Positions 8,772 to 56,798 of a stretch of 64,000 nt of DNA are shown in pieces (positions within the stretch are counted from its first letter, which is position 1; each line of letters begins with the position of its first letter). Made by a program: the position numbers and the translations under genes. A model generated the notes under the pieces. It made no database searches and was not told the DNA's origin. It worked only from the letters and a program-made list of their open reading frames with translations. Source of the stretch: Patescibacteria group bacterium (GTDB lineage: Bacteria > Patescibacteriota > Microgenomatia > UBA10105 > UBA927); the NCBI GenBank assembly GCA_018821245.1, contig JAHJMO010000026.1:15518-79517 (forward strand). The letters are read 5' to 3'.

Positions 8772-9404
8772 ATGGATGATTTTACTGAGGAGAATCTAAA
8801 AAATAACTGTCCACATTGCGATCCCAACTCATTCGCACTGAAGTATCCGCTGGAAAAAACCAGTAAATTTTGGATTGTTTGTGATGTCCATCCTTTAACT
8901 GAAGGACATATTTTAATCATTCCAAAGAAGCACTTGAGTTGTATTGGTGAATACCAAGAAAATGATTATTCAGAATTTCTTTCTTTGTTTAATAAGTATT
9001 CAGACTTTATAAGAAAAACATATGGTTATGTTAGTACATTTGAACATGGCAAGATTGGTCAGACTGTATTTCATTCTCATGTCCACCTGTTACCATTTAA
9101 AGGTTCTTCCATAGAAATAATTCCAGAAGGATTAAATAATCTTGCTTTATTTAGTGATTTTTCTCATTTAAAAGATGTATTTCGTAAAGAAGGAAAATAT
9201 TTATATTTTTCAATTGGTGATAAAAAATGGGTTGTTAATACAGGTTTAGGATCTCCAAGATTCTTCAGGGACAGATTTGCAAAAGCCATTGGAAATCCCT
9301 TGCGGGGTGATTGGAAAAAGATGAGCCAAAATAGCAAATTAATGATGGAAGCCGAGCGAGATATTCAAGATCTTCGTGACAAATGGAATTCCTTTAAGAA
9401 GTGA
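8772..9404 (+). CDS. HIT (histidine triad) family nucleotide hydrolase/transferase with C-terminal extension
   Basis: GHILIIPKKH plus histidine triad HSHVHLLPF; about 100 aa C-terminal extension; very AT-rich (about 33% GC). Confidence 0.7.
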   Translation: MDDFTEENLKNNCPHCDPNSFALKYPLEKTSKFWIVCDVHPLTEGHILIIPKKHLSCIGEYQENDYSEFLSLFNKYSDFIRKTYGYVSTFEHGKIGQTVFHSHVHLLPFKGSSIEIIPEGLNNLALFSDFSHLKDVFRKEGKYLYFSIGDKKWVVNTGLGSPRFFRDRFAKAIGNPLRGDWKKMSQNSKLMMEAERDIQDLRDKWNSFKK

Positions 9405-12841: not shown

Positions 12842-12896
12842 TAAAAGTCAAATGTCAAAGGTTAAAAGTCAAATATTGCCGCGAAACAGAGGGCAG

Positions 12897-20723: not shown

Positions 20724-22241
20724 CTATTCCCACTCCATGGTGGCAGGAGGTTTGGTGGTAATGTCGTAGACAACGCGGGATACTCCAGGGACTTCGTTGA
20801 CAATGCGCGAAGAAATTTTTTGAAGAAGACTATCAGGGAGCTTGGCCCAATCGGCAGTCATCCGATCCCGAGAGACTACTGCCCGTACCGCTATCACTTC
20901 TCCGAGTCCCCGGCCATCGCCTTTAACTGCGGTTGACTGTATACCGGTAGCCACGGCGAAAGAGTGAAGAAGCTTCTCATACCAGCCCGTCATGTTTACT
21001 TCTTCAACGATGATGGCATCAGCTAAACAAACACGTACAAGTCGTTCCTTGGTAACCTCTCCGATGATGCGGATGGCATAGCCGGGGCCGGGGTGCGGCT
21101 GTTGAGAGATGAATTGGCGCGGGATTCTGAGTCTTTTGGCTAACGAGCGGACTTGATCAGTGTATAATTCCCTGATCGGTTCAACCAGAATAAGCTTCAT
21201 TCTTTTGGGCAGGCCGCCGATATTGTGGTGGGATTTGATATTGGCGGCATATCTGGTTCCCTTGCTTTCTATAACATCAGAATAGATAGTTCCCTGGACC
21301 AGAAACTCGACATGTGTGTGGTTTTTAAGTTCTTTCTCAAACAGTTCAATGTATAATTTGCCAATCGCTTTTCGTTTTTCCTCCGGATCGGTTTTGCCCT
21401 TGAGGACTTTCAAAAATTCCTTTTCTTTAGAAAGAACAATCGGGTTGATGCCGAGCTTATTTCGGAAGTAGGAAACGACAGTCTGTGTGGTGCCTTTGCG
21501 CATGAGCCCGTTTTCGATATGAACAGGGATTAGTTGTTTTCCGATGGCGCGGGCAACGAGTGTTGCCGATACAGTTGAATCCAGTCCGCCGGAAACGGCT
21601 GCTATGGCTTTTTTGCTGCCGACGGTTTTTTTGATGGTTTTGATCATTGCTTCAATATCAACAGACTGTTGTTTGGCAGAAAGTCCACAGATATCCAGAA
21701 AATTTTTGAAGATTAAAGCGCCATGTTCTGTATGTTCGACTTCCGGATGGAACTGCACACAGTAAATCCTCCGTTTTTCATGAGTCATTGCCGCGGCCGC
21801 AACAGTTTCCGTATTGCCGACAAACGAAAACCCCAATGGGGGAGAGGCAACAACGTCGCCATGGCTCATCCAGACACGGGAACGAGTGGAGAGGGAGGAG
21901 AATAAGCGGGTATTACCATCGATGACGAGGGCTGCCGGCCCGAACTCCTTGGTTTTACCCGGTTTGACTTTTCCTCCCAAAAGATGAGCAGTTAGCTGTT
22001 GCCCGTAGCATATGCCTAATATCGGTATTCCGAGGGTATAGATCGTTTTACTGACTGTTGGGGCATGCCTTTCGTAAACGCTGGCCGGGCCGCCGGAGAA
22101 AATGATTCCGGCAGGTTTTACTGCAGTAATGACTTCTAAAGCGACGTCTGGTTCAATTATTTTGACCTGAATTCCAAAGTCCGCTACTCTCCGGGAAATA
22201 AGATGTGTAGTCTGCGATCCGAAGTCAACAACGATGATCAT
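20724..22241 (-). CDS. guaA: GMP synthase (glutamine-hydrolysing)
   Basis: N-terminal class I GATase (GICYGQQ catalytic Cys), ATP-PPase SGGLDS motif, C-terminal dimerisation domain ending PPATMEWE. Confidence 0.95.
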   Translation of the reverse strand: MIIVVDFGSQTTHLISRRVADFGIQVKIIEPDVALEVITAVKPAGIIFSGGPASVYERHAPTVSKTIYTLGIPILGICYGQQLTAHLLGGKVKPGKTKEFGPAALVIDGNTRLFSSLSTRSRVWMSHGDVVASPPLGFSFVGNTETVAAAAMTHEKRRIYCVQFHPEVEHTEHGALIFKNFLDICGLSAKQQSVDIEAMIKTIKKTVGSKKAIAAVSGGLDSTVSATLVARAIGKQLIPVHIENGLMRKGTTQTVVSYFRNKLGINPIVLSKEKEFLKVLKGKTDPEEKRKAIGKLYIELFEKELKNHTHVEFLVQGTIYSDVIESKGTRYAANIKSHHNIGGLPKRMKLILVEPIRELYTDQVRSLAKRLRIPRQFISQQPHPGPGYAIRIIGEVTKERLVRVCLADAIIVEEVNMTGWYEKLLHSFAVATGIQSTAVKGDGRGLGEVIAVRAVVSRDRMTADWAKLPDSLLQKISSRIVNEVPGVSRVVYDITTKPPATMEWE

Positions 22242-25276: not shown

Positions 25277-25858
25277 ATGATTCCAACGGAAGATCAGTGC
25301 AGGCAATTGTGGGAAAAGTATCACTTGCCGGAAAAAAAGCGCCGGCACGTAGAGTTAGTGGCGTGCGTTGCGCGCTTTCTCTCTCAACAATTAACAATTA
25401 ACAATTCACAATTAACAATTAATCACTCGCTTCTTGTTGCCGGAGCGCTCCTTCATGATATTGACAGCAAAGTACCTAAATTATCTGGAGAAAAACATCC
25501 GGATGCAGGTGTGAGAGTTCTTAAAATTGAAGGTTTAGCAAAGATAGCGCAGTTAATTAAGACGCATGCTTTGCATACAATTCTTGATCGACATTCTTGT
25601 CCAAAAACCCTGGAAGAAAAAATTTTGTTTTTGGCGGATAAAATGGTCAAATACGATATCATTACGGTAGACGAGCGTTTCAGGTTGTGGGGGAATGAGT
25701 CTTTGTCAGACGCCGAACAGAGAGTTCTTCGCGCGGCTTACCCCAAGGTGAAAGCTCTTGAAAAAGAACTATTATATCTTGCCGGGATTGGAAGTCCGGG
25801 ACAGGTGGCAAAGTTGATCATGGAAGAGTATACTAACAAAAAGAAGGAGGGCGTATGA
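25277..25858 (+). CDS. HD-domain phosphohydrolase
   Basis: H...HD motif (ALLHDIDSK) and downstream conserved D/K; carries an in-frame 7-bp tandem repeat insertion (25386-25423) encoding QQLTINNSQLTINHS. Confidence 0.6.
   Translation: MIPTEDQCRQLWEKYHLPEKKRRHVELVACVARFLSQQLTINNSQLTINHSLLVAGALLHDIDSKVPKLSGEKHPDAGVRVLKIEGLAKIAQLIKTHALHTILDRHSCPKTLEEKILFLADKMVKYDIITVDERFRLWGNESLSDAEQRVLRAAYPKVKALEKELLYLAGIGSPGQVAKLIMEEYTNKKKEGV
25386..25423 (+). repeat. Tandem heptamer array (AATTAAC/AATTCAC) x5, in-frame inside the HD-domain CDS
   Basis: caattaa caattaa caattca caattaa caattaa; translates QQLTINNSQLTINHS. Confidence 0.8.
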
Positions 25859-27225: not shown

Positions 27226-29343
27226 ATGGTAAAAAAGACAATTACCAAAATTAAAAAGCGAAGCGGTCGGATTGTTAAGTTTAATCCGCTAAAAATCGTC
27301 AACGCGATTGAAAAGGCATTTAAGGCTATTGGTGAAAAGGATGGGGCAAGAGTCAAGGTATTGGCAGACAAAGCTGTCAAGAAACTTGAAGAGCGGTACG
27401 ATGGGAAGATTATTCCTCAGGTTGAAGAGATCCAAAATATTATTGAAGAGGTCTTAATGCAACACTGCCATTATGATGTGGCTCGGGCCTATATTTTATA
27501 CAGAGATCTTAAGAATCGCGTTCGTGATATTCACTCTTTGATTGACTCGGACGAACTCGTCGGCGATTATCTTTCCAAACTTGATTGGCGCGTCCGGGAA
27601 AATTCCAACATGGCCTATTCTCTTCAGGGGTTAAACAATCATGTCTCCTCGGTGGTTTCTGCCAATTATTGGCTTAACAAGATTTATCCCCCTCAGATTA
27701 GACAAGTCCATGTTGATGGCGATCTTCATATTCATAATTTACAGATGTTGGCAGCCTATTGCTGTGGTTGGGATTTAAAGGATCTTTTAGTCGGGGGTTT
27801 CGGGGGAGTTCCTGGCAAGATTGAGTGTAAACCGCCAAAGCATTTTCGGACTACATTAGGGCAGTTGGTTAATTTTTTTTATACGCTTCAGGGGGAAATT
27901 GCCGGCGCGGTGGCAGTTTCTAATTTTGATAGCCTTCTCGCACCTTTTATCGCCTTTGATGGTCTTTCCTATTCAGAAGTAAAACAATCTCTTCAAGAAT
28001 TTATTTTTAACATGAATGTCCCCACCAGGGTAGGTTTTCAAACGCCCTTTTCTAATGTTACCCTTGATCTTATTATTCCTGACTTTTTGGCCAAAGAACC
28101 GGTGATTATCGGAGGCATTCCACAAGGTAAAACGTATGAAGAGTTTCAAAAAGAAGTTGATGTATTCAACAAAGCCTTTGCCGAAGTGATGCTTGAAGGA
28201 GATGCGAAGGGGCGAGTTTTTACTTTTCCCATTCCCACCTATAGTATAACCCGCGATTTTAATTGGGATAATCCGATTTATAAAGGAATTTGGGAAATGA
28301 CCCGCAAATACGGCATTCCTTATTTTTCCAATTTTGTCAATTCGGATATGAAACCGGAAGATGTCAGGAGTATGTGCTGCCGGTTGAGATTGTCAACCAA
28401 AGAACTTCAACATCGGGGAGGAGGGCTTTTTGGCGCTAATCCGTTGACTGGAAGCCTTGGTGTCGTAACTCTTAATTTACCAAGGATTGGTTATCTCGCT
28501 AAAACGAAAAAAGAATATTTTGAGAAACTTTCTCACTTGATGGACCTGGCCAAAGAAGCCCTGCTTCTCAAAAGGACAGTAGTGGAGAAGTTTACCGAAG
28601 AAGGACTTTATCCGTACTCCAAAGTGTATTTGGGGGGAGTTAAAGGCCGCTTCGGCGAATATTGGAAAAATCACTTCAACACCATTGGTTTAATTGGTAT
28701 GAACGAATCGCTTCTTAACTTTATGAACAAGAATATCGGCGAGGAGGAGGGACGGGTCTTTGCAGAAGAAATTCTGGATTTTATGCGGACTAAACTTTTA
28801 ATATATCAAAAAGAAACTGACCAGATGTTTAATCTGGAAGCCACGCCTGCCGAGGGGACTTCTTATAATTTGGCCAGACTTGACAAGAAACTGTACCCTA
28901 AGATTATCTGTGCTAATGAAAAGGAAATCGGCAAAGATCATGCAGAACCTTTTTATACTAATTCAACACATCTGCCGGTTAATTTTACCGATGATATTTT
29001 TCAAGCTCTTGACCTTCAAGATAACCTCCAGACAAAATATACCGGCGGAACGGTTTTCCATGGATTTTTAGGGGAAAGCTTGCCGGATACGGTCGCCGTT
29101 AAAACCATGGTAAAAAAAATTGCCGAGCATTATCACCTTCCTTATTATACCTTAACCCCCACCTTTAGCGTTTGTCCCGGTCACGGTTATCTTAAAGGGA
29201 AACAGGATACATGTCAGGAGTGCGGCAAAACGTGTGAGGTTTGGTCAAGAATTGTTGGCTACTTACGACCGGTTGTTCAGTGGAATGTTGGGAAACAGGT
29301 GGAATTTGCAGAAAGGAAGACTTACCGGATTAAAACAACCTAA
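27226..29343 (+). CDS. nrdD: Anaerobic ribonucleoside-triphosphate reductase (class III) NrdD
   Basis: N-terminal ATP-cone; C-terminal Zn-ribbon CPGHGYLKG...CQECG and glycyl-radical motif RIVGYLRPV. Confidence 0.9.
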   Translation: MVKKTITKIKKRSGRIVKFNPLKIVNAIEKAFKAIGEKDGARVKVLADKAVKKLEERYDGKIIPQVEEIQNIIEEVLMQHCHYDVARAYILYRDLKNRVRDIHSLIDSDELVGDYLSKLDWRVRENSNMAYSLQGLNNHVSSVVSANYWLNKIYPPQIRQVHVDGDLHIHNLQMLAAYCCGWDLKDLLVGGFGGVPGKIECKPPKHFRTTLGQLVNFFYTLQGEIAGAVAVSNFDSLLAPFIAFDGLSYSEVKQSLQEFIFNMNVPTRVGFQTPFSNVTLDLIIPDFLAKEPVIIGGIPQGKTYEEFQKEVDVFNKAFAEVMLEGDAKGRVFTFPIPTYSITRDFNWDNPIYKGIWEMTRKYGIPYFSNFVNSDMKPEDVRSMCCRLRLSTKELQHRGGGLFGANPLTGSLGVVTLNLPRIGYLAKTKKEYFEKLSHLMDLAKEALLLKRTVVEKFTEEGLYPYSKVYLGGVKGRFGEYWKNHFNTIGLIGMNESLLNFMNKNIGEEEGRVFAEEILDFMRTKLLIYQKETDQMFNLEATPAEGTSYNLARLDKKLYPKIICANEKEIGKDHAEPFYTNSTHLPVNFTDDIFQALDLQDNLQTKYTGGTVFHGFLGESLPDTVAVKTMVKKIAEHYHLPYYTLTPTFSVCPGHGYLKGKQDTCQECGKTCEVWSRIVGYLRPVVQWNVGKQVEFAERKTYRIKTT

Positions 29344-30063: not shown

Positions 30064-30097
30064 TCTGACACAAGGGTCGGCCTCCTCGTATTTGTGA

Positions 30098-30123
30098 CAA
30101 ATAAACAAATATACAAATAAATG
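30098..30123 (+). repeat. Tandem octamer array CAAATAWA x3, intergenic nrdG-pduO
   Basis: caaataaa caaatata caaataaa. Confidence 0.6.
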
Positions 30124-30159: not shown

Positions 30160-30714
30160 ATGAATATCTATACCCGCGCCGGCGACAAAGGATTTACTTC
30201 TATTTTTGGTGGGAAGCGAGTTTTGAAATGCCACGAGCTTGTGGATACATATGGGTTCATAGACGAGCTAAATAGTTGGGTGGGGTTGATAATTTCACAA
30301 CTTAATAAAAACGATGAAACCCGATTTTTTGTAGAAGTTCAGAAGCAACTGCTTGCTATTGGAAGTAGTCTGGCCGGCTGGAAGGGTTTGAAAAAAGAAT
30401 TAGTAGAAAAACAAATCAAGAAGATGGAGATCAAAATAGATTTGATGGAAAAAACTCTTCCTACGATAAAAAATTTTGTTCTTCCAGGCGGATCACGCGT
30501 GGGATCAATAGTTCATATTGCCAGAAGTATTTGCCGTAGGGCCGAACGACAAACCGTTTCCTTGGCACAGAAACAAATAATACAACCGGAGATCATCAAA
30601 TACCTGAATCGCCTGTCGGACTTGCTTTTTGTTTTCGCACGGTTTATAAACAGTCAGGGCGGCGTCACCGAAGTCGTTTGGTCTGGAGACGCGTCCACAG
30701 AAAAGAAACGGTAA
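30160..30714 (+). CDS. PduO-type ATP:cob(I)alamin adenosyltransferase
   Basis: N-terminal IYTRAGDKGFTSIFGG matches the PduO/MMAB ATR signature (iYTrtGDkGeTsl); about 185 aa. Confidence 0.8.
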   Translation: MNIYTRAGDKGFTSIFGGKRVLKCHELVDTYGFIDELNSWVGLIISQLNKNDETRFFVEVQKQLLAIGSSLAGWKGLKKELVEKQIKKMEIKIDLMEKTLPTIKNFVLPGGSRVGSIVHIARSICRRAERQTVSLAQKQIIQPEIIKYLNRLSDLLFVFARFINSQGGVTEVVWSGDASTEKKR

Positions 30715-30715
30715 A

Positions 30716-30870
30716 GATAAGAGGAATCCAGTGTAAATCTGGGGCTGTGCCGCAACGGTAGCCCTGTCGATGTCGTTTTACGACATAATGACCGGGGAGC
30801 CCGGAACTCATCTTTACCAAAAACAATCCCGAGCAGGAGAACTACGCGTAAGCGGAGAATGGAAAAATCT
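30716..30870 (+). promoter_or_regulatory. Cobalamin (B12) riboswitch aptamer
   Basis: GAGGAATCCAGTGTAAATCTGGGGCTGTGCCGCAACGGTAGCC aligns almost base-for-base with the conserved core of the E. coli btuB leader (GGGAAUCCAGUGCGAAUCUGGAGCUGACGCGCAGCGGUAAGG). Downstream helices GTCGTTTTACGAC and CCGGGGAGCCCGG, and a B12-box-like AATCCCGAGCAGGAG. Confidence 0.7.
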
Positions 30871-30981: not shown

Positions 30982-32925
30982 ATGCCATTTGCACGCGCAG
31001 AACTACCGGGTATGGGGCCACAATCATCAGGATGTTCCTGTTCTGTTGATACCGGTCTTTGGGTGAACTTATATAACGAAATTTATGATGATGTAGCAGA
31101 AAAAATGAAACAGACAGGATTGTTTTTTAACGAAGAACACGTAAAACACGAAGCGAGTAAACGATTCATGTTGCATGTTTACCTGCCAGACATAAAGAGT
31201 GTTGTTAAAGAGTGGAGAGGCGACAAGGTGATGGACGGGACAGTATATGACGTGACTAATCATGGACTGGAGATAGTATGGAAAGGTGAGAGAATAACTG
31301 CGGAGTATGAATTTGTTCTGAAGCGTCGCTCAATGGGCCTGGAAGATCCAGATGAGACACGCACGTTCTACAGAGCGCAAAAGAAAATTCTCGCCTCACC
31401 GAATGCAGATGTGTGGTTTCCGGTACACGAAAAAGCAGACGGAGAAGACCGCATACGGTATGCGGCCCACTGGGTGCGGGACGGCAATCGCGTACGCGCG
31501 GAAACGCACCGTATAGCAGGTGACCGGGATTTAAGCCTAAAAGAAGCGCGTCAGGTCATACGAGAAAAGGTCGGCTCATATGCGCCGCATGAGACAAGCA
31601 AGACAGATGCGTCGTTTGTGTTTTCCAACATTCAGGAGGCGGATCATAGGAGGAAAACCTTGCAAGCGCAATATGATCACAACATAAAACAGCAGAAAGA
31701 TATCATTTCACCACAGGATATTGACATAAAGATGGTTCACGTCGAAAAAATATACAACCCCAACCGTCAAGTTGATGCGTATCCGGCCGAACATCGGGTA
31801 ATTCGTGATGCAGCCGACACTTTATTACATTCTTCTCAACGTATAACAAAAGACACTACGACAGCGAGTGTAGCGTTTGCTTCTTTTTTGCGTGAATCGT
31901 TCAGGAAAAAAAAGAGAATTGATGCCCGAAGTACCATAAAAAATATTGAGAGCAGGCGACAGCAGAAAGCAAAAGAAAAGTTCATATCACAGAAAATTTT
32001 GTCGTTCTTTCGTCAATCGCAACCAGAAAGACCGGAAGGAAAAATTCGCCACAAGGTAGCCCACTGGATGCGTCGTTTAGAAAACAACGTGGACACACAG
32101 CATGTTGTTCATGCCGTAGCGAACATGTCAGCTGGTATAAGAAAGAAAATTGTGTTGTTGAGTGATATAGTTTCAAAATTTTTTCCTTGGACGAGGGGCG
32201 CGACAGGAACATTGGAAGGCGGAGCTGCAAAACGCAGGACACAATCTATAAAGGAGAAACAAGGAGAGAGGGAAAGAGAGTTTAAAAAAGCCGGTTGGTT
32301 TATAAAGCTGTTCAAAAGAGAGAACGATAAGCAAGCAGTAGAGGAACATTGGAATATTATCTGCAAAGTGCAACCGTTGAAGGCAGAAAAAATATCGCCG
32401 TTTTACACAATGCTTCGTGCGCTGGCTGCAAAGCTTCAAATATTTCCCGTCGCTTCCAAGCGGGAGGGAATAGAAATTACCACACAACAGGTCAAAGAAA
32501 AACAAGAGCTGATGTCAGAAGAGATGCTTCCGGAAGACAATCACCTTGTTCGGGAGAAGTCAATAGATATGTTTGAAACAACAAGCGACTTTTTTGTTTC
32601 AGCTCTCTTATGGTATGTATTGTATGAAGCAGATGTAGTCAATTTCGACGCGCAGAACCCCAGTCTTGTTGATGAGAAAAATATTAATGTATCGATACAT
32701 CAATATAAGACAGAAAAATTGGTGCAGAGTACAGCAGGTGGAAATTGGATTCTGTTTTCTATTATTTGGTATCTGGCGATGATCCGCGAACAAGGGAAAA
32801 GACAAGGCGTGAAACAAAAGAAAAAAGGAGGATCGAAGAAAAAGACGATTATTTGGGATAGAAACACAACAAACCCACCGGCGATACTTCCGCAACACAA
32901 TATAATATTTGTTTTTCGTTCGTGA
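30982..32925 (+). CDS. Hypothetical 647-aa protein, highly charged, two C-terminal TM helices
   Basis: Long ORF immediately after the riboswitch and terminator; K/R/E/Q-rich; hydrophobic segments FFVSALLWYVLY and NWILFSIIWYLAMI near the C-terminus; no known domain recognised. Confidence 0.5.
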   Translation: MPFARAELPGMGPQSSGCSCSVDTGLWVNLYNEIYDDVAEKMKQTGLFFNEEHVKHEASKRFMLHVYLPDIKSVVKEWRGDKVMDGTVYDVTNHGLEIVWKGERITAEYEFVLKRRSMGLEDPDETRTFYRAQKKILASPNADVWFPVHEKADGEDRIRYAAHWVRDGNRVRAETHRIAGDRDLSLKEARQVIREKVGSYAPHETSKTDASFVFSNIQEADHRRKTLQAQYDHNIKQQKDIISPQDIDIKMVHVEKIYNPNRQVDAYPAEHRVIRDAADTLLHSSQRITKDTTTASVAFASFLRESFRKKKRIDARSTIKNIESRRQQKAKEKFISQKILSFFRQSQPERPEGKIRHKVAHWMRRLENNVDTQHVVHAVANMSAGIRKKIVLLSDIVSKFFPWTRGATGTLEGGAAKRRTQSIKEKQGEREREFKKAGWFIKLFKRENDKQAVEEHWNIICKVQPLKAEKISPFYTMLRALAAKLQIFPVASKREGIEITTQQVKEKQELMSEEMLPEDNHLVREKSIDMFETTSDFFVSALLWYVLYEADVVNFDAQNPSLVDEKNINVSIHQYKTEKLVQSTAGGNWILFSIIWYLAMIREQGKRQGVKQKKKGGSKKKTIIWDRNTTNPPAILPQHNIIFVFRS

Positions 32926-32943
32926 TATGATGAAGATATTCTT

Positions 32944-33405
32944 ATGAACAATCTGCCCGATGATACTCAAATTCGCGCGAACAATACTCCGCCGGGGACT
33001 AACAACACGGCTTCGCAGACGGCGCCATCCGCCGGAGGCGCGTTTCTTAAGGAAGTTGAGAGGCCTTCCGCGGTTTCTTCTGAGGTGTCGATACGCCCCG
33101 CCACAGCAGAGACAGAATTACCGAAAGAGGTAGCGTCGGCAGGAGTGACGTTGAGACCCACAAGTGTCCCGATTCCGCCGAAGCTATCGCAAATGGGTGT
33201 TAAGCCTGCGGGAAACAATGTACCCACGCAGCCCAAGGCAACAACTGTCGCCCTGCCGCTTACCGATGACCAGATCGCTCAAGGGCTCCATCAGGGAATA
33301 ATGAGCTCATGGAGATGGCTTGCACAGTGGTGTCTTCGCCGCCTGAAACAATTACACGTTGGACTGAAAGCAATGCACGGGAAGTTAACAAGGGTTCGCG
33401 CGTAA
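32944..33405 (+). CDS. Hypothetical Pro/Thr/Ala-rich protein
   Basis: Low-complexity 153-aa ORF with a C-terminal amphipathic W/R-rich helix; stop TAA 3 nt before the next ATG (translationally coupled). Confidence 0.4.
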   Translation: MNNLPDDTQIRANNTPPGTNNTASQTAPSAGGAFLKEVERPSAVSSEVSIRPATAETELPKEVASAGVTLRPTSVPIPPKLSQMGVKPAGNNVPTQPKATTVALPLTDDQIAQGLHQGIMSSWRWLAQWCLRRLKQLHVGLKAMHGKLTRVRA

Positions 33406-33407
33406 CC

Positions 33408-35756
33408 ATGTCAGAACAATTATTAGATCTTACCTATCGTTTGGAGATGTTTGGAATAAGTCTCCTGTTTATCGCCTTGTTTCTGGCGGGGATGGCGCTT
33501 CTGGCCTACGGCGTGTTTTTGCTGTGGAAATACCGCGACAGAGAAAAGCAATCGCTTGAGTACGCGCTTCTTCAGGTGGCGGTGCCGCGCGACAATGAAA
33601 TAAAAATAGACGCATCCGAGCAAATGTTTGCAAGTCTGCATGGTATATATCACGGTGGTTTTTGGTCGTTTCTTACGCCGTCTCCGCATCTGTCGTTTGA
33701 GATTGTGGCGAAAAAAGAAGATATCCGGTTCTATATTTCTGTTCCGCGCAAATTTACGGATTTGGTCGAAAAACAAATTCACGGCGCTTATCCCGGAGCG
33801 GATATAAGGACAGTGGATGAGTATTCTATTTTTTCCGAAAAAGGCAATGTAGCCTTTGCAGCACTGCGACTGAAAAACCCAGACTATTTGCCTATCCGCA
33901 TCTTTCGGGATCTGCCGGTTGATCCTCTTTCGTCTATTACATCTGTTCTTGCCAAAATGCAGGAGGGTGAAGGAGCGGCAATTCAAATACTCGTCCAGCC
34001 CACGGGAGGAAAATGGCGAAACATAGGAAGGTCATATATTTCCAAGGTGAAGAAAAATGAGGCAAACCCGGAAAAAGCAAGCTTTAAAGTGGATCAAAAG
34101 TCCCTGGAGGCGATAGAACAAAAAACCAGCAAACCTGGCTTCAACGTCGTTGTCAGGATCGTTGTGTCTTCTGGGACGAAGGAATCGGCAGACATTCATT
34201 TGGAGAACATCCTTTCCTCGTTCTACCAGTTTACATCGGATCATAATGCATTTACCAAGGTCAAGCACCCCATAAAAAAATTATTCATGCTGGATTTTAT
34301 CTACAGGTATTTTCCGATTTGGAATTTTCCGTTCTTTCGTCAATATAGCGTGCTTAATAGTGATGAGTTGGCTACGGTATACCATTTGCCGAATAAATTC
34401 GTAGAAACGCCGCACGTTTTTTGGTTGAACGCCAAGCGTGCGCCAGCCCCATCACAAATCCCCTCAAGCGGGCTGTTTATAGGTGCTTCGCAATACCGAG
34501 GAGTTGACCGCCCGATTTACGTAGGCGACGACGACCGAAGGCGCCATACATATATCATTGGTAAGACAGGAACAGGTAAAACACAACTTCTGGAAGAGTT
34601 GGTTATGCAGGATATTTCCGCTGGTCGGGGGGTAGCTGTCATAGATCCGCATGGAGACCTGATCGACGGAATATTGTGCCGTATGCCGCCGGAGCGGGCA
34701 GAAGATGTAATCTATTTTGACCCGTCCGACACCGAGCGACCCATGGGGCTTAACATGCTTGAGTCATACACAGAGGAACAGAAGCATTATGTGGTAACGT
34801 CGATTGTCGGGCTTATGTACAAGTTGTATGATCCGATGAAAACAGGCATCATCGGCCCGCGTTTTGAGCACGCCATCAGGAATGCGATGCTCACGGTTAT
34901 GTGTGAGCCGGGGAATACATTTGTCGAAGTAGTCCGGGTGCTCACAGACAGTTCATTCGTTCAGGAATTGCTTCCCAAAGTGGACGATCCGGTTATTCGC
35001 CGTTATTGGACTGACCAGATTGCGCAAACCGCTGATTTTCATAAGTCCGAGGTATTGGACTATATCGTTTCGAAATTCGGCCGGTTCGTGACCAATAAAC
35101 TCATGCGCAACATCATCGGCCAGTCTAAATCATCATTCGATTTCCGTAAAGTTATGGATGAGGGCAAGGTGTTGCTGGTAAATTTGGCAAAGGGGAAAAT
35201 CGGTGAGGAGAATAGCAATTTCTTGGGTCTTATTATCGTTCCAAAGATTCTGATAGCCGCCATGAGCAGGCAGGAAGTGGCAGAAGAAAAACGGCGCGAC
35301 TTTTACCTCTATGTCGATGAGTTTCAGAATTTCGCAACGCCGGACTTTGCCCAGATTCTTTCAGAGGCCAGAAAGTATAAGCTCAACCTGATCGTTGCTA
35401 ACCAGTTTATCGGTCAGATGGAGGAAGAAGTAAAGAATGCTGTATTTGGTAACGTTGGGACACTCATCGCGTTCCGCGTGGGTGTGACGGACGCTAACTA
35501 CCTGCAGCATGAGTATCAGCCGACGTTTAATGAAATCGACCTTATCAATATCGATAAGTACAACGCATATGTCAAAACTATCGTGAATAATGAACCGGTT
35601 AAACCGTTTAGCCTGGATCTTACGAAAGACATGGGGAGGATCTATCAAACCCGCAATCCGCAGGTAGCCAAAGCAATTATTCAACTGTCGCGCCTGAAGT
35701 ACGGCAGGTCCAGGGAGTTGATCGAGGCGGAAATTGCGCATCGCGCGCGTTTATAG
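33408..35756 (+). CDS. VirD4/TraG/TraD-family (type IV coupling protein-like) membrane ATPase
   Basis: N-terminal TM helix; Walker A IGKTGTGKT; AVIDPHGDL (TraG/TrwB-type); Walker B FYLYVDEF; C-terminal TraD/TraG-like region. Confidence 0.6.
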   Translation: MSEQLLDLTYRLEMFGISLLFIALFLAGMALLAYGVFLLWKYRDREKQSLEYALLQVAVPRDNEIKIDASEQMFASLHGIYHGGFWSFLTPSPHLSFEIVAKKEDIRFYISVPRKFTDLVEKQIHGAYPGADIRTVDEYSIFSEKGNVAFAALRLKNPDYLPIRIFRDLPVDPLSSITSVLAKMQEGEGAAIQILVQPTGGKWRNIGRSYISKVKKNEANPEKASFKVDQKSLEAIEQKTSKPGFNVVVRIVVSSGTKESADIHLENILSSFYQFTSDHNAFTKVKHPIKKLFMLDFIYRYFPIWNFPFFRQYSVLNSDELATVYHLPNKFVETPHVFWLNAKRAPAPSQIPSSGLFIGASQYRGVDRPIYVGDDDRRRHTYIIGKTGTGKTQLLEELVMQDISAGRGVAVIDPHGDLIDGILCRMPPERAEDVIYFDPSDTERPMGLNMLESYTEEQKHYVVTSIVGLMYKLYDPMKTGIIGPRFEHAIRNAMLTVMCEPGNTFVEVVRVLTDSSFVQELLPKVDDPVIRRYWTDQIAQTADFHKSEVLDYIVSKFGRFVTNKLMRNIIGQSKSSFDFRKVMDEGKVLLVNLAKGKIGEENSNFLGLIIVPKILIAAMSRQEVAEEKRRDFYLYVDEFQNFATPDFAQILSEARKYKLNLIVANQFIGQMEEEVKNAVFGNVGTLIAFRVGVTDANYLQHEYQPTFNEIDLINIDKYNAYVKTIVNNEPVKPFSLDLTKDMGRIYQTRNPQVAKAIIQLSRLKYGRSRELIEAEIAHRARL

Positions 35757-35813: not shown

Positions 35814-37169
35814 ATGATTGTTTATATCAGCAACGTATCAGAAGACGTATGGCCGTTTATTAGCTCCATATCCCAGGCGCAGGCGCGTGAGTTTGAAATT
35901 CAGGAGAATGCCAATCTGGCAGAGCGCGACCTTTTTTCGTTCCCTGGCGAGGATCACTTTCTTTTCGTCTCTCCCCGGTCTATCAGCCGGACCTTTCTGG
36001 ATTATTACATAGGATTATTCGGTAATAAGCATCTTTCTGTCTCAACGCCCAAGGTCCATACAGGAGTTATTTGTGAGGATATTCTGGCGGATGACGATGT
36101 CATGGATGAAATAGCGATTGCCGCAAACGGGGCCAAGCGATTAACACTTGTTTCCTACACCGCCTCACCACAGTTTTTGGCGCTTGTGTCGGAACTTCGA
36201 AAGAAAGGTTTTAACGTGTACACTCCTGAAGCACCGGAGCAGGAGGACGCATGGACGGTAAACTTTTTCGGCAGCAAGTCCGGGATACGTCAGCTTGCGC
36301 AGAAAAGTGCGGCAGTTGAACCGGACTTCGTCATGGCGGACGGCTTGGTTTGTTCGGGTATAGGAGACGCGGCGAAAATCGCAGCAAAAAAATATATTCG
36401 CGAAAAAGGCGTTGTCGTCAAAACCAATAAAGGGCATTCAGGCGCAGGAGTACTCATTTTCCGGCAGGGAGATTTGCCCGAGAATTACGATGAGTGCGAG
36501 GAACAGATAAAAACCACGCTTTCCCGTGACGGGTATTGGGAAAAATTCCCAATTGTCATTGAGAGTTTTGTAAAAGAAAACCGTGCGGTGGCCGGAGGAT
36601 TTCCAAATGTTGAGTTTAAGATTGCCAAACACGGTGAAGTGGAGTTCCTCTACTACTGCGCGCTTAGGGTGACGCCGGAGGGGGTATTTAAGGGGATAGA
36701 AATTCAAGATGAAGCAGTGTCGGATAAGCTCGGAGCACGCATGATGGATACGGGATTCTATGTAGGCGAGCAATATGCCTCTTACGGATATCGGGGATAT
36801 TTTGACGTGGACTTTGTCGCCAGTCGAAACGGACAACTGTATGTGACGGAGTCCAATACGCGGCGGACAGGGGGAACGCACGTGTATGAAACAACAAAAG
36901 CTCTATTTGGGAAAAACTTTATGACCGAGGTATATACATTGTCAAACAATATCTATCCATTGCCGAAACGGAAACAGATTTTTTTGGAAAATCTTTTAAA
37001 CGCGCTTTCGCCGATACTGTTTGACAAAAAAAGCAAAGAAGGTTTGATCGTCGCTTCTGAGCACATCTTAAACCAGGGGGCTTTTTCCTACATCATCTAC
37101 GGCCAGACGAAAAAGCGCGCTCTTGCCATCGAGGAAAAAATGGAAGAGATTGTACAAAAGTTAGTCTAA
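35814..37169 (+). CDS. ATP-grasp fold protein
   Basis: KGHSGAGV (P-loop-like), ...E-x-N-x-R (VTESNTRRTGG) catalytic loop typical of ATP-grasp ligases; 451 aa. Confidence 0.45.
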   Translation: MIVYISNVSEDVWPFISSISQAQAREFEIQENANLAERDLFSFPGEDHFLFVSPRSISRTFLDYYIGLFGNKHLSVSTPKVHTGVICEDILADDDVMDEIAIAANGAKRLTLVSYTASPQFLALVSELRKKGFNVYTPEAPEQEDAWTVNFFGSKSGIRQLAQKSAAVEPDFVMADGLVCSGIGDAAKIAAKKYIREKGVVVKTNKGHSGAGVLIFRQGDLPENYDECEEQIKTTLSRDGYWEKFPIVIESFVKENRAVAGGFPNVEFKIAKHGEVEFLYYCALRVTPEGVFKGIEIQDEAVSDKLGARMMDTGFYVGEQYASYGYRGYFDVDFVASRNGQLYVTESNTRRTGGTHVYETTKALFGKNFMTEVYTLSNNIYPLPKRKQIFLENLLNALSPILFDKKSKEGLIVASEHILNQGAFSYIIYGQTKKRALAIEEKMEEIVQKLV

Positions 37170-37234
37170 GAACCGCGTGCTCCATTCCGGTTTCATCGCA
37201 ATTTTTCCGCTGATTTAGTACAATGATATCCGAC

Positions 37235-37306
37235 GCGCCCGTAGCTCAGCGGAAGAGCGCGTGTCTTATAAACACGAGGTGCTTGGATCGTCACCAAGCG
37301 GGCGCA
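37235..37306 (+). tRNA. tRNA-Ile (anticodon UAU, reads AUA)
   Basis: Cloverleaf: acceptor GCGCCCG/CGGGCGC (7 bp), D-arm GCTC/GAGC, anticodon stem CGTGT/ACACG with loop CTTATAA (anticodon TAT), 5-nt variable loop, T-arm CTTGG/CCAAG, discriminator A, no encoded CCA. T-loop ATCGTCA is non-canonical (A54/T58), so a tRNAscan check is needed. Confidence 0.6.
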
Positions 37307-37307
37307 C

Positions 37308-37343
37308 AATATTAAACAAATTAACAATTAACAATTAACAATG
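37308..37343 (+). repeat. Tandem heptamer array AATTAAC x4 between tRNA 3' end and the idi start codon
   Basis: attaaac aaattaac aattaac aattaac aATG; the last unit supplies the idi ATG context. Confidence 0.75.
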
Positions 37344-37901
37344 ATCGAGTTAGTTATATTAGTAGATGAGCAGAATAACCAGATTGGCACGGCCGCGAAA
37401 GATACAGTGCACACAAAACATACTCCTTTACATCGCGCGTTTTCATTATTTCTGTTTAACAGTAAAAAAGAATTATTGATCACCCAACGGGCAAAAACAA
37501 AAAAAACGTTCCCCGGTGTCTGGACCAATACGGTTTGCGGCCATCCTGCGCCAGAAGAATCGATTCTGGACGCGGCACGACGCAGACTAAAGGAAGAATT
37601 GGGGATTGTTAGAACAACTAAAACGAGGCCTGGCCTCGGAAGGAGCGACAATACGCTCCCGGCGATTACTGAAGTAACTCAATATAGGTATCGTTTTGCA
37701 GACAAAAACGGTACCGTCGAAAACGAAATCTGTCCGATTTTGGTTACTTACGCAGACATTGATCCTAAGCCAAATCCATTGGAAATCGATGATTGGAAGT
37801 GGATGCCATGGAATGAATTTCTTAAAGATATTAAAACGAATAAAGACAAATATTCCCCTTGGTGCCGCGAAGAAGCGCAAATCCTTGCCCCCTTTATTTA
37901 A
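37341..37901 (+). CDS. idi: Isopentenyl-diphosphate delta-isomerase, type 1 (Nudix)
   Basis: LHRAFSLFLFN ... TFPGVWTNTVCGHP matches the IDI-1 signature (TNTCCSHP) and Nudix fold. Confidence 0.85.
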   Translation: MIELVILVDEQNNQIGTAAKDTVHTKHTPLHRAFSLFLFNSKKELLITQRAKTKKTFPGVWTNTVCGHPAPEESILDAARRRLKEELGIVRTTKTRPGLGRSDNTLPAITEVTQYRYRFADKNGTVENEICPILVTYADIDPKPNPLEIDDWKWMPWNEFLKDIKTNKDKYSPWCREEAQILAPFI

Positions 37902-37919
37902 CTTGTAGCTTGATGTAAA

Positions 37920-37957
37920 GCCACGACAAAATTCCGCTCGAGCGAGTGTTTGTCGTG
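37920..37957. terminator. Strong hairpin between convergent idi and tsaD (candidate bidirectional terminator)
   Basis: CCACGACAAA...TTTGTCGTGG 10-bp perfect stem with an 18-nt loop containing the palindrome GCTCGAGC; no clear U-tract. Confidence 0.35.
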
Positions 37958-38008
37958 GAGAATGTTTGACAAAAGCTAGGTGGCACGACATTGTTTGCTC
38001 TTGGCCGA

Positions 38009-39139
38009 TTATGCCTCCCCAACTTCAACCGCCAGATCAGGAACAGCCGTAATTTTTTTCCAGTCAGTTGATTTTCCGCGGAAAAAAGCATAAGCCCCGA
38101 TGTAGGCGGCGTTGTCGGTACAGAGTTCCGGAGACGGCACGTGAATTGTTATATTGTTAAATTGTTTTATTGTTGAAAAAAACTTTTCTCTAAGACGGAT
38201 ATTTGCTGCAACCCCGCCGGAGAGCAAAATACTTTTTGCTTTATATTTTTGAGCCGCCCGCAGTGTTTTTTCGACCAAAACATCAGTTATTGCTTCCTGA
38301 ACCTCGTAAGATGATTGTTCTATTGTTCTATTGTTATATTGTTGATTACGTTTCAGTTTATCGATCTCACGAAGAATGGCGGTTTTAAGGCCGCTGAAGG
38401 AGAAGTTAAGAGAATCATCGTTTAACATAGGGCGAGGGAGGGGAATCGTGAATTGTGAATTATGAATTGTGAATTTAGCAGCTGTTTCTTGGATGGCAAC
38501 ACCACCTCTATTGCCAAATCCAAGCAGTCTCGCAGCTTTGTCAAAACATTCTCCAGCGGCGTCATCCAGCGTTCCGCCGAGCCAGCATAGTTCCTTAACT
38601 GATTTCATTAGATAAAGTTCGGTGTGCCCACCGGAAACAACAAGAGATATGGCAGGGAATTTAATTGTTTTGTCATCCCAGACTTGATCGGGGATCTGCG
38701 TTTTTGAAGTCAGATTCCCGTCTTCGCGGGAATGACAAGAAAGCGGCTCAAGAAAATTCGCATACATGTGCGCCAGCACGTGATTGACGGGGATTATGGG
38801 TTTGTCGGTTACATACGCAATGGTTTTGGCGGTTTCAACGCCTGTCAGAAGCGAGCCTATCAACCCCGGCCCGACTGTCACGGCAATGGCGTCAATAGAA
38901 TCATTGATACATTGAAACATTGATACATTGACACCTGTTTTTAACGGTTTTAACGCTTCAATGATGACAGGGATGACGCACTTGAGTTGCTCGCGGGCGG
39001 CAACTTCCGGCACTATCCCGCCGTATTTTTCATGCATCGCCGAGGATGAAGCCACGACATTGCTTAATATTTTCGTTCCATCCTGAACTACGGAAGCAGC
39101 CGTCTCGTCACAAGAAGTTTCGATAGCGAGGATTTTCAT
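38009..39139 (-). CDS. tsaD: tRNA N6-adenosine threonylcarbamoyltransferase TsaD (Kae1/Gcp family)
   Basis: MKILAIETSCDETAASVV N-terminus, HxxGH-type metal motif region (SGGHTELY), C-terminal GG..AN motif; carries four in-frame AT-rich tandem-repeat insertions. Confidence 0.9.
   Translation of the reverse strand: MKILAIETSCDETAASVVQDGTKILSNVVASSSAMHEKYGGIVPEVAAREQLKCVIPVIIEALKPLKTGVNVSMFQCINDSIDAIAVTVGPGLIGSLLTGVETAKTIAYVTDKPIIPVNHVLAHMYANFLEPLSCHSREDGNLTSKTQIPDQVWDDKTIKFPAISLVVSGGHTELYLMKSVKELCWLGGTLDDAAGECFDKAARLLGFGNRGGVAIQETAAKFTIHNSQFTIPLPRPMLNDDSLNFSFSGLKTAILREIDKLKRNQQYNNRTIEQSSYEVQEAITDVLVEKTLRAAQKYKAKSILLSGGVAANIRLREKFFSTIKQFNNITIHVPSPELCTDNAAYIGAYAFFRGKSTDWKKITAVPDLAVEVGEA
38143..38176 (-). 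repeat. Tandem 8-mer array (AACAATWW) in-frame in tsaD, insertion 1
   Basis: Coding strand aacaataa aacaattt aacaatat aacaattc; encodes TIKQFNNITIH. Confidence 0.7.
38314..38346 (-). repeat. Tandem 8-mer array (AACAATAN) in-frame in tsaD, insertion 2
   Basis: Plus strand attgttct attgttct attgttat attgttga; encodes NQQYNNRTIEQ. Confidence 0.7.
38448..38476 (-). repeat. Tandem heptamer array (AATTCAC/AATTCAT) in-frame in tsaD, insertion 3
   Basis: Plus strand gtgaatt gtgaatt atgaatt gtgaatt; encodes KFTIHNSQFTIP, closely matching the HD-protein insert. Confidence 0.8.
38903..38934 (-). repeat. Tandem 8-mer array (CATTGAWA) in-frame in tsaD, insertion 4
   Basis: cattgata cattgaaa cattgata cattgaca; encodes NVSMFQCINDSI. 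Confidence 0.65.
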
Positions 39140-42621: not shown

Positions 42622-43563
42622 ATGAAGATTACCGTCCGTGAATCATTTTTGGCTACCATCGCGTACGCCGATATATTTGACTACCCTCTTACACTAGAAG
42701 AGTGTGATATGTGGCGCATCTGCACCCCTAATACTGATTCACGGATTCATGAATGGTCAAATATAGTAACGAGACTAAAAAAGCGCGACAGGATTTTTTA
42801 TAGCCTTCGAAGAGATAGGTCTATCATAGATAAACGGGAAGACCGCGCCCGGTGGTCAGCAAAAAAAATCAATATAGCCCGACGCATGGCGCGCGTTTTG
42901 CGTTTCATCCCTACCATCAGGCTTATAGGAGTTACAGGCGGATTGGCTATGTATAATACCGAAAAAAACGATGATATAGATTTTTTCTGTATAGCCGCAA
43001 GCGGTACTCTGTGGATAAGCCGTTTTTTGGCAGTAGCGTTTATGGAGGTATTCGGACGCCGCCGCCGGCCGGCAGATGTGCGCGTGAAAGACAAAATCTG
43101 TCTGAACATGTTTATGTCAGAAGACGCACTGTGTGTTCCTGTACAAGAACAGGATTTGTACACGGCCCACGAGGTATTGCAGATGAGGGTATTATGGGAA
43201 AGAGGTGGGGTATACAGGGCCTTTTTGCGTGCTAACGGTTGGGTACGGAATTTTCTTCCGAATGCGTGGGAAGAAAGTTCACAGTTCATAGTTCATAGTT
43301 CACAGAAAAAACCCAAAAATAAATTATTTAAAAAAATCTTAGGGGTTTTGCTGTTAACTATTAACTATTTACTAATAACTATTGAGTCAATTGCAAAATT
43401 GGCTCAACTTTGGTATATGCAAAAACATCGGACTACGGAAGTGGTTACCGACACCATGATTCGTTTCCATCCGAAAGATGCTCGCCGCCGGGTAAGAGCG
43501 GCACTTGGGAAACGATTGAAACAGTGGAACATCCCCCTTGACAATATATTTTATGACCGTTAA
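42622..43563 (+). CDS. Hypothetical protein with Pol-beta-like nucleotidyltransferase signature
   Basis: GVTGGLAMY...DIDFFCIA resembles the hG[GS]...DxD minimal NTase motif; contains two in-frame tandem heptamer insertions (43276-43305, 43354-43386). Confidence 0.4.
   Translation: MKITVRESFLATIAYADIFDYPLTLEECDMWRICTPNTDSRIHEWSNIVTRLKKRDRIFYSLRRDRSIIDKREDRARWSAKKINIARRMARVLRFIPTIRLIGVTGGLAMYNTEKNDDIDFFCIAASGTLWISRFLAVAFMEVFGRRRRPADVRVKDKICLNMFMSEDALCVPVQEQDLYTAHEVLQMRVLWERGGVYRAFLRANGWVRNFLPNAWEESSQFIVHSSQKKPKNKLFKKILGVLLLTINYLLITIESIAKLAQLWYMQKHRTTEVVTDTMIRFHPKDARRRVRAALGKRLKQWNIPLDNIFYDR
43276..43305 (+). repeat. Tandem heptamer array AGTTCAY x4, in-frame in the 42622-43563 CDS
   Basis: agttcac agttcat agttcat agttcac; encodes SQFIVHSSQ. 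Confidence 0.75.
43354..43386 (+). repeat. Tandem heptamer array WTTAACT x4-5, in-frame in the 42622-43563 CDS
   Basis: ttaacta ttaacta tttacta ataacta ttgag; encodes LTINYLLITIE. Confidence 0.7.
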
Positions 43564-56762: not shown

Positions 56763-56788
56763 GAGATACTAAGATATTAGGATACTAG
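56763..56788 (+). repeat. Tandem 8-mer array RGATAYTA x3, intergenic between GT2 and tatD
   Basis: agatacta agatatta ggatacta gg. Confidence 0.55.
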
Positions 56789-56798
56789 GAAAAGAACA

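Follow-up and report, generated by a model that had tools for sequence, protein, structure and literature searches.

How AUA can be read as isoleucine while AUG is not misread is a classic problem of decoding, to which the textbook answer in bacteria is TilS and the lysidine that it places at position 34 of tRNA-Ile2(CAU). The tilS gene is present in approximately 98% of annotated bacterial genomes (PMC12514573). A tRNA-Ile with a genomically encoded TAT anticodon has been listed for 19 species in tRNADB-CE (PMC4013482), and some bacteria carry both the lysidine-dependent (LAU) and the UAU decoder (Taniguchi et al. 2013, PMC3575796). Here we analyse a tRNA-Ile(UAU) gene at positions 37235–37306 of a 64-kb stretch of DNA from a Patescibacteria group bacterium (assembly GCA_018821245.1, contig JAHJMO010000026.1), referred to below as the window. 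The gene lies just upstream of idi, which encodes a type-1 isopentenyl-diphosphate delta-isomerase, and its T loop has A54 and U58 in place of the usual U54 and A58. It is probably a functional AUA-decoding tRNA-Ile(UAU) belonging to a conserved family with a compensated T-loop inversion.

The closest described counterparts are tRNA-Ile2(UAU) of Mycoplasma mobile and the other bacterial tRNA-Ile(TAT) genes (PMC3575796, PMC4013482). These also encode UAU in the genome and presumably read AUA without lysidine, and M. mobile is likewise a small-genome, host-dependent organism with high AUA usage. The window tRNA differs in coming from another phylum and in having a 7-nt D loop, a non-canonical 15–48 pair and the inverted 54–58 pair. 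In M. mobile, the absence of tilS, the adaptation of IleRS (R865, or a eukaryote-type IleRS) and an unmodified U34 have been shown. In decoders of this type, adaptation of IleRS to U34 takes the form of a Trp-to-Arg change at E. coli position 905 or of a eukaryote-type IleRS2. In comparison with canonical tRNA-Ile2(CAU), the task is the same, AUA as Ile while avoiding AUG, and so is the expected t6A37 context, with A37 following U36; here, however, the anticodon is UAU and provides no C34 to accept lysidine, so the tRNA is not a substrate for TilS.

The tRNA gene and its family

ARAGORN, which the earlier note had named as a check, called a single tRNA in the window, a tRNA-Ile with anticodon tat at 37235–37307 (+). 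The Rfam model RF00005 matched 37235–37306 over its full length (model positions 1–71) with 57.2 bits, against a gathering score of 29. The gene extends for 72 nt up to the discriminator A73 at 37306 and encodes no CCA. Parsed by hand, it forms a cloverleaf of 7/4/5/5 bp with acceptor stem GCGCCCG/CGGGCGC, D stem GCTC/GAGC around a 7-nt D loop (AGCGGAA), anticodon stem CGTGT/ACACG, variable region AGGTG and T stem CTTGG/CCAAG. The 7-nt anticodon loop CTTATAA (37265–37271) contains U33, the anticodon TAT (37267–37269), A37 and A38, and the T loop ATCGTCA (37287–37293) reads A54 (37287), U55, C56, G57, U58 (37291), C59 and A60. Two claims made earlier from the letters of the sequence are thereby upheld: the genomically encoded UAU anticodon, on which ARAGORN, Rfam and the hand parse agree, and the exchange of T54/A58 for A54/T58, which the hand parse bears out. 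Minimum free energy folding of the tRNA recovered the D, anticodon and T arms (−30.9 kcal/mol, z = −2.5) with the acceptor helix slightly shifted in register, at 6 instead of 7 pairs, and a T stem of 6 pairs; when 37225–37400 was folded, no significant structure besides the tRNA was found (z = −0.87). The tRNA, the spacer with its repeat array and idi are unchanged in three independent assemblies (NCBI GCA_018829345.1, ENA ERZ27247117 and Logan SRR10598174), and this identity rules out an assembly error.

One genome per GTDB species was scanned with the pattern GAGC-N6-CTTATAA-N13-GGATCRT-NN-CC, yielding 31 matches, 28 of which belong to one tRNA family. The remainder were chance pattern matches that are not tRNAs in Salinimicrobium (L136) and Clostridia (L146), and an unrelated tRNA-Ile(UAU) outside the family, within a tRNA array (L145). 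By record title, the 28 are assigned to Gottesmanbacteria (5), Levybacteria (2), Microgenomates (1), Yanofskybacteria (2), Saccharibacteria (1), ‘Patescibacteria group’ (7) and ‘uncultured Gammaproteobacteria’ (10). The contigs with the last title are L130, L133, L144, L150, L152, L153 and L155–L158. Four of them (L130, L133, L150 and L153) have both an ATP-grasp gene and idi beside the tRNA, and several display the order ATP-grasp / tRNA / idi / tsaD, as in the window, with 55–66% protein identity to it, which is why we think that their taxonomic label is probably wrong. Further copies of the family are present in metagenomes.

Genome matches and metagenome copies together gave an alignment of 28 distinct 72-nt sequences, on which we scored a structure comprising the four helices and, in addition, the 15–48 tertiary pair. 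All four helices are 100% paired across the alignment, and 13 pairs (12 stem pairs and 15–48) have changed on both sides. Paired cells amount to 97.7%, compared with 81% in column shuffles, and the covariation score is 0.42 against 0.105 for the shuffles, none of which (0/500) reached the observed value; controls in which the pairing partners were slid by 1–3 columns scored 0.015–0.106. The residues that make the contacts between the D and T loops, G18, G19, U55 and C56, are invariant (28/28), as is the run A54-U55-C56-G57-U58, which also occurs in two further members (L291 and L293) that bring the family to 30 distinct sequences. Conservation and covariation of this kind mark a functional tRNA that is kept by purifying selection and are not what a pseudogene would show. 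As a check independent of the scan pattern, six loci were retrieved through idi homologues with no tRNA pattern imposed; a tRNA-Ile upstream of idi with the UAU anticodon kept was found in five of them.

The inverted 54–58 pair

The family departs from the canonical arrangement of a T54–A58 pair with a pyrimidine at position 60: every member has A54/U58, A occupies position 60 in 19 of the 28 aligned sequences with C in the other nine, and position 59 is C or U. The 15–48 pair is also mostly non-canonical (G-G in 11 sequences, U-A in 11, C-A in two, G-A in one and G-C in three), compared with G-C in 73 of 88 tRNAs of the non-swapped sample. These patterns suggest that the swap and the changes at 59/60 and 15–48 make up a coordinated change of the elbow and core.

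Around the family the inverted pair is scarce. A58 is retained by all 17 other tRNAs found at these loci, and A54/T58 was seen in none of them; among 303 other tRNAs from all genome and metagenome loci, 290 have T/A and three A/T. The window itself offered no comparison, and no further tRNAs were found within approximately 10 kb past either of its ends (approx. 20 kb of flank, read in addition to the 64 kb searched). When the metagenome collection was scanned for tRNA-Ile(UAU) with a 7-nt D loop and an unconstrained T loop, at least 120 matches were returned, and of the 113 that were well parsed among the matches listed, 107 had T54/A58, five A54/T58 and one C54/T58. On these counts A54/U58 is a minority state among tRNA-Ile(UAU) genes.

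Its origin can be narrowed down by comparison with near relatives. Outside the T loop, L248, whose T loop is TTCGATC, differs from the swapped tRNA of L131 at only 5 of 65 positions, and these are confined to the acceptor stem and D loop. Where the gene order is the same, sister tRNA-Ile(UAU) genes show the T loops TTCGATC (L294) or TCCGATC (L287 and L289), and these sequences therefore place the origin of the swap inside the lineage. We thus picture the family as a vertically inherited tRNA-Ile(UAU) lineage, one branch of which inverted U54–A58 to A54–U58 with the elbow contacts G18, G19, U55 and C56 unchanged.

The same inversion recurs elsewhere. Parsed tRNAs from viral loci (380 in total) comprised 358 with T/A, 12 with A/T and two with A/A. 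Of the 12 A/T cases (approx. 3%), one is the window tRNA itself and the others are tRNAs for Gly, Ile, Ala, Val, Lys, Phe and Asn. On one phage contig (L075), Ile(UAU) and Lys(UUU) tRNAs with ATCGT loops sit beside five canonical tRNAs. The seven viral tRNA-Ile(UAU) with A54/U58 have bodies that differ from those of the Patescibacteria family, which indicates independent origins. Since the swap recurs independently and A/A was seen in only 2 of 380 viral-set tRNAs, positions 54 and 58 appear from these comparisons to covary as a pair, of which the inverted form is a rare but viable alternative. Phage tRNA-Ile(UAU) and other phage tRNAs with ATCGT loops in IMG/VR (L075, L095 and L117) thus share A54/U58 with the window family, often together with the UAU anticodon; their bodies are unrelated and they lie in tRNA arrays of viral contigs, whereas members of the window family are chromosomal and sit in a gene order that is maintained between species.

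A number of observations on these phage and environmental arrays may be recorded here. The L075 contig is IMGVR_UViG_3300034107_000314, with its two ATCGT-loop tRNAs at 177–249 and 2337–2410. Such tRNAs also stand beside canonical ones in L004, L095, L102, L112, L117, L239 and L253, and the isoacceptors represented are Ile-UAU, Lys-UUU, Lys-CUU, Gly-UCC, Phe, Asn, Val, Ala, His and Ile-GAU.

A review of T-loop nucleotides calls U54 universally conserved save for eukaryotic initiator tRNAs, which have A54–A58 (PMC7912444); in the literature we searched, A54, U58 and tRNA were not mentioned together. Eukaryotic initiator tRNA-Met, with its purine–purine Hoogsteen pair, likewise has A54 and demonstrates that T loops tolerate it (PMC7912444). 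The window tRNA, in contrast, is a bacterial tRNA of elongator type in which position 58 has changed as well, to U, giving a swapped A-U pair and not A-A; the A60 common to the window copy and the eukaryotic initiator may be a coincidence.

The inversion would amount to a compensated double substitution that retains the 54–58 pair, and it would remove the substrates for m5U54 and m1A58 modification. A base pair that has been called universal is here inverted with clean covariation, which makes the family a natural experiment on T-loop architecture and on the needs of modification enzymes. A stronger version of this reading holds that A54–U58, together with C59/A60 and G15–G48 or U15–A48, arose as an adaptive remodelling of the elbow, confined to the AUA decoder in a single branch of Patescibacteria, and not as a neutral compensated swap. 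Were that the case, the tRNA could escape enzymes that read the elbow (those for m5U54, pseudouridine-55 and m1A58) or tRNA-targeting toxins; alternatively, recognition by IleRS, EF-Tu or the ribosome could be tuned so that an unmodified U34 reads AUA and not AUG, and the independent recurrence in phages would reflect the same selective logic. We consider this version unlikely, and we saw no sign in our analysis that the inversion adds a new function.

A second departure from the standard T loop occurs in the same clade. In many of its tRNAs, C55 replaces U55, which is nearly universal and is the site of pseudouridine-55; the T loops concerned read TCCGATC or TCCGAAT. Examples among tRNA-Ile(UAU) and tRNA-Met(CAU) are found in L287 (9902–9977), L289 (9877–9951), L147, L156, L293 and L294, and they include sisters of the idi-linked tRNA-Ile(UAU). 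These C55 tRNAs hint that constraints on T-loop modification are relaxed in these bacteria.

Isotype and probable decoding of AUA

Codon usage in the 53 longest non-overlapping open reading frames (ORFs) of the window points to a substantial demand for AUA decoding, with ATA at 20.4 per 1000 codons, or 27% of Ile codons. The tRNA may also be suited to charging by IleRS: reading the sequence against the Escherichia coli IleRS identity set (A73, C4–G69, U12–A23, A35, U36, A37 and A38), we found all of these elements present. C29–G41 is absent, with U29–A41 in its place. Ile identity is thus plausible, and charging by IleRS and decoding of AUA would follow from it. The ATA usage of the window falls in the ‘high’ class of a published survey (PMC12514573).

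The earlier note had described UAU tRNA-Ile as rare. That is correct for cultured bacteria, given the 19 species (PMC4013482) and the near-ubiquity of tilS (PMC12514573) cited above, but it does not extend to this lineage, where five of six idi loci have one, or to environmental DNA, where scans for tRNA-Ile(UAU) returned at least 120 matches in the viral and at least 120 in the metagenome collection. The further claim that such a tRNA implies loss of or independence from TilS is unsafe, as some bacteria carry both systems (PMC3575796). We looked for tilS as ORFs of at least 100 amino acids with the PP-loop motif SGGxDS; the sole match in the window, at 20724–22241, is GMP synthase, and no tilS-like PP-loop motif at an N-terminus was found in approximately 1.2 Mb of related and environmental loci. 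The window contains no ileS and no CAU tRNA, and neither tilS nor tRNA-Ile(CAU) turned up when it was read together with approximately 20 kb of flank. Among ORFs of at least 600 amino acids with a KMSKS motif in the related and environmental loci, no ileS was found; two KMSKS proteins of 805 amino acids look like LeuRS or ValRS and belong to unrelated loci. A search of the literature returned nothing on lysidine in Patescibacteria, and nothing relevant on the candidate phyla radiation and tilS.

Several points count against the reading of the gene as an AUA-decoding tRNA-Ile with a compensated inversion. The isotype was assigned from the anticodon and from identity elements picked out by eye, and in its body the tRNA shows no marked closeness to the tRNA-Ile(GAU) genes sampled. 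Because the non-UAU tRNAs with the most similar bodies, Lys(UUU), Arg(UCU) and Val(GAC), belong to other organisms, body similarity is uninformative on isotype. The geometry of A54–U58 is presumed, and turning a reverse-Hoogsteen pair round does not give a strictly isosteric pair at the same place. Finally, tRNA-Ile(UAU) may not be the sole AUA decoder of the genome. If it is not, it could be a redundant second decoder alongside TilS and tRNA-Ile(CAU), as in the evolutionary intermediate that Taniguchi et al. proposed. Bacteria with both LAU and UAU decoders (PMC3575796), the presence of tilS in most annotated genomes (PMC12514573) and unclassified elongator-type CAU tRNAs near tRNA-Ile(UAU) in relatives all lend this some weight, while the lack of a tilS-like PP-loop ORF in the window and in the related and environmental loci detracts from it, and conservation of the UAU tRNA with high AUA usage argues for a real decoding load. 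We regard redundancy as possible but on the doubtful side; it is compatible with the reading favoured here except where that would make the UAU tRNA the ‘only’ decoder. That the gene is instead a decaying pseudogene or a sequencing artefact might be suspected from its non-canonical T loop and the missing CCA, but many bacteria normally encode no CCA, the stems are perfect and score 57 bits with Rfam, the three assemblies agree, and the compensatory changes among the thirty distinct family members effectively refute the idea, which we find scarcely credible.

Preferring, then, a functional AUA decoder, we note that the UAU tRNA looks standard and conserved in a large uncultured group, which would make Patescibacteria a natural system for the study of lysidine-independent AUA decoding. 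It changes no paradigm: the family is a conserved curiosity of value for work on AUA decoding and the T loop, and not a new kind of system.

Linkage to idi, descent and repeat arrays

The gene downstream of the tRNA, at 37341–37901 (+), encodes 186 amino acids and is idi, as the earlier note had proposed: it matches NF002995 with 209 bits (cutoff 127) and TIGR02150 with 154 bits (cutoff 105.8), as well as the Pfam NUDIX domain. A tblastn search with the window idi as query placed idi directly after the tRNA in 14 of the 34 family loci; in the other 20, no idi follows. In many of the 14, only a few nucleotides separate the discriminator from the idi ATG: 1 nt in L143, L151, L152, L153 and L197 (…GGGCGC-A-C-ATGGAA…), 2 nt in L150 (ACCATG, in which the A of an encoded CCA is also the first letter of the start codon), 3 nt in L138 (ACCA-ATG), 4 nt in L157 and 7 nt in L130. 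Longer spacers occur in L147 (20 nt), L133 (23 nt), L160 (26 nt), the window (34 nt) and L149 (approx. 81 nt, with a roughly 39-nt tandem duplication). Among the loci retrieved independently of the pattern, L294 combines a canonical T loop with a 3-nt spacer, and the T loop TCCGATC goes with spacers of 23 nt in L287 and approximately 49 nt in L289; in L291 and L293, which have swapped T loops, other genes lie between the tRNA and idi. The idea that linkage to idi is exclusive to swapped T loops (14/34 against 0/108) was overturned by this sample. Because tRNAs with canonical or TCCGATC T loops are idi-linked too (L294, L287 and L289), the linkage is, as far as these loci tell, older than the swap and independent of it.

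Side observations on the same genes are as follows. The junction of tRNA and idi is an insertion hot spot in relatives, with a PhdYeFM/PIN toxin–antitoxin pair in L293 (3353–3999), approximately 1.7 kb of small ORFs in L291 (8290–10000) and the duplication in L149. A gene for a XerC/D-like integrase lies just downstream of idi in L287, L291, L293 and L294. The idi ORF of the window is approximately 14 residues longer than the profile span aligned to NF002995, and the extra stretch may be a small in-frame insertion; in the middle of idi (37600–37670) there is a perfect palindrome, CGAGGCCTGGCCTCG, at 37624–37638, which was flagged as terminator-like on the minus strand.

A putative −10-like hexamer, TACAAT, was read from the sequence at 37219–37224 (+), ending 10 nt upstream of the first position of the tRNA. 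In the family as a whole, a −10-like hexamer ends 4–16 nt upstream of the tRNA in 25 of 34 loci, compared with 7.7% of random positions, and 19 of these 25 have a TGn extension, typically TTGATATAAT; the argument for a promoter is drawn from these family-wide statistics. Relatives in which the ATG comes 1–7 nt after the tRNA have TGnTATAAT at 7–16 nt ahead of it. In relatives, a spacer of 1–3 nt leaves no room for a separate idi promoter, and co-transcription is therefore the economical reading. For the window, we think it reasonably likely that the tRNA and idi are co-transcribed. Three observations speak against this: the window hexamer matches the −10 consensus at only 5 of 6 positions and lacks TGn; a two-hexamer −35/−10 scan of 36900–38100 found no tRNA promoter; and the AACAAT repeats of the spacer, which match the −10 consensus at 4 of 6 positions, might conceivably act as a weak internal promoter for idi.

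The tRNA would have its own −10 promoter approximately 10 nt upstream. If the two genes are co-transcribed, the transcript would start a few nucleotides before the tRNA and run into idi. RNase P and a 3′ endonuclease would release the tRNA, to which CCA would then be added, leaving the idi mRNA, which would be essentially leaderless in relatives and here would have a 34-nt A/U-rich leader with no Shine-Dalgarno motif. Such a leader would suit an organism that hardly uses these motifs. Upstream of the 37 ATG-started genes surveyed in the window, a Shine-Dalgarno-like motif was found in only two cases, and many window genes have TATAAT or TGnTATAAT 5–12 nt before the ATG (for example at 8772, 18308 and 60704), which suggests that leaderless or Shine-Dalgarno-free initiation is widespread, and apparently normal, in this organism.

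Co-transcripts of tRNA and mRNA are known from the thrU-tyrU-glyT-thrT-tufB operon of E. coli and from mitochondrial ‘tRNA punctuation’. As in those systems, a protein gene follows directly on a tRNA, a promoter stands ahead of the tRNA but not between the two genes, and processing would set the 5′ end of the mRNA. The present arrangement differs in that a single tRNA comes within 1–3 nt of the start codon in relatives, that co-transcription is presumed, and that the outcome would be a leaderless mRNA in an organism which appears to use leaderless or Shine-Dalgarno-free initiation generally. In relatives, the almost complete lack of a spacer suggests that leaderless mRNAs can arise through tRNA processing in these bacteria.

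The wider gene order is also maintained. Upstream of the tRNA lie genes for a VirD4/TraG-like ATPase (33309–35756) and a pre-ATP-grasp protein (35814–37169), and the succession RNR / Cob_adeno_trans / VirD4-like / ATP-grasp / tRNA / idi is kept from species to species. The idi protein is identical to one recorded for a ‘Patescibacteria group bacterium’ (MAG GCA_018829345.1), and its closest homologues, from records named Gottesmanbacteria or Patescibacteria, have 60–68% identity; the bacterium is thus Gottesmanbacteria-like, within Microgenomates. As gene order is kept across species whose idi proteins are only this similar, the region looks, by its gene content, vertically inherited rather than mobile.

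Two further explanations bear on this linkage and descent. One takes the gene to be a tRNA-shaped processing signal in cis, a form of punctuation that sets the 5′ end of the idi mRNA and is no decoder, with the odd T loop reflecting relaxed translational constraint. The idi ATG 1–7 nt after the tRNA in many relatives, with no space for another promoter, and the departure from the near-universal T54/A58 fit this idea, yet 20 of 34 family loci have no idi downstream, the tRNA is intact in L291 and L293 although genes have been inserted before idi, and idi linkage is found with the fully canonical T loop of L294. Nor would a mere signal be expected to conserve the anticodon loop, acceptor stem, G18–G19 and U55–C56 with every stem 100% paired, or to retain UAU in loci found without imposing it; AUA, moreover, is a frequent codon that needs a decoder. 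We hold this explanation to be decidedly unlikely. A phage- or mobile-element-derived tRNA, acquired horizontally, is rated lower again, as very improbable, despite the abundance of tRNA-Ile(UAU) in viral contigs (at least 120 matches), the A54/U58 loops of 12 of 380 tRNAs in viral loci (one of them the window's own), the VirD4/TraG-like ATPase upstream, and the integrase and toxin–antitoxin genes nearby in relatives. None of the seven viral A54/U58 tRNA-Ile(UAU) belongs to the family, and they have 8-nt D loops and different stems; the order of genes through tRNA and idi is conserved across species at 60–68% idi identity, and GC content is flat across the region. A vertically inherited decoding tRNA, transcribed with idi or otherwise, accounts better for these features.

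The 34-nt spacer at 37307–37340 (+), between the discriminator and the idi ATG, is A/T-rich, has no Shine-Dalgarno motif and is mostly filled by degenerate copies of AATTAAC. Tandem Repeats Finder delimits an array of (AATTAAC) × 3.4 at 37319–37342 (+) with 100% matches. The array had been described as four copies abutting the tRNA and providing the context of the idi start codon; it in fact starts 12 nt after the discriminator and consists of three perfect copies and a partial one, and only the last part of the description holds, as the partial copy overlaps the ATG at 37341. The window spacer, caatattaaacaaattaacaattaacaattaaca-ATG, is related to the shorter spacer of L160, ctcattaaacaaataacaaattaaca-ATG, which ends ...attaaacaaataacaaattaacaATG, and to that of L289, which reads attaacaaattaac followed by (CAAGTAAC)x2. 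From this relatedness, the array is best described as a recent, lineage-specific tandem expansion, of slippage type, of the A/T-rich tRNA–idi spacer, and there is no evidence of a visible link to tRNA function.

It is one instance of a genome-wide array habit. In the window, six arrays of period 7 and four of period 8 reach at least three copies, whereas 20 dinucleotide-preserving shuffles contained no such array. Short tandem arrays with units of 7 or 8 nt, each spanning approximately 25–37 nt, are located at 12843–12873, 25386–25422, 30097–30121, 38145–38174, 38314–38343, 38443–38475, 38902–38931, 43276–43305, 43354–43383, 56765–56790 and 57915–57945. That at 25386–25422 is a second array of the spacer's unit (AACAATT) and lies inside an HD-domain ORF, where it encodes QQLTINNSQLTIN. 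In-frame arrays occur within ORFs, with four in tsaD, one in the HD-domain ORF, two in the ORF at 42622–43563 and one in metG. In related Patescibacteria loci the arrays are of similar length, approximately 30 nt, with different units of 7–9 nt, and at one tsaD site the L138 peptide differs from that of the window and is also repetitive (KIENCKLKI versus TIHNSQFTI).

The tsaD gene itself (38009–39139, −) is convergent to idi and lies two genes away from the tRNA. The strand opposite to the tRNA and idi also holds a gene of the cytidylyltransferase family and one with a VanW domain. TsaD makes t6A37, which is needed by ANN-reading tRNAs such as tRNA-Ile. The arrangement with tsaD recurs in at least nine related loci, and the proximity is probably only conserved gene order, even if the two genes are neighbours in function as well. 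Further upstream, a cobalamin riboswitch (RF00174) at 30698–30829 (+) scores 38.1 bits against a gathering score of 31.5; it follows the ribonucleoside-triphosphate reductase gene (27226–29343) and precedes a 647-amino-acid ORF without a Pfam match (30982–32925). In relatives, the equivalent region holds the ribonucleotide reductase and a Cob_adeno_trans gene.

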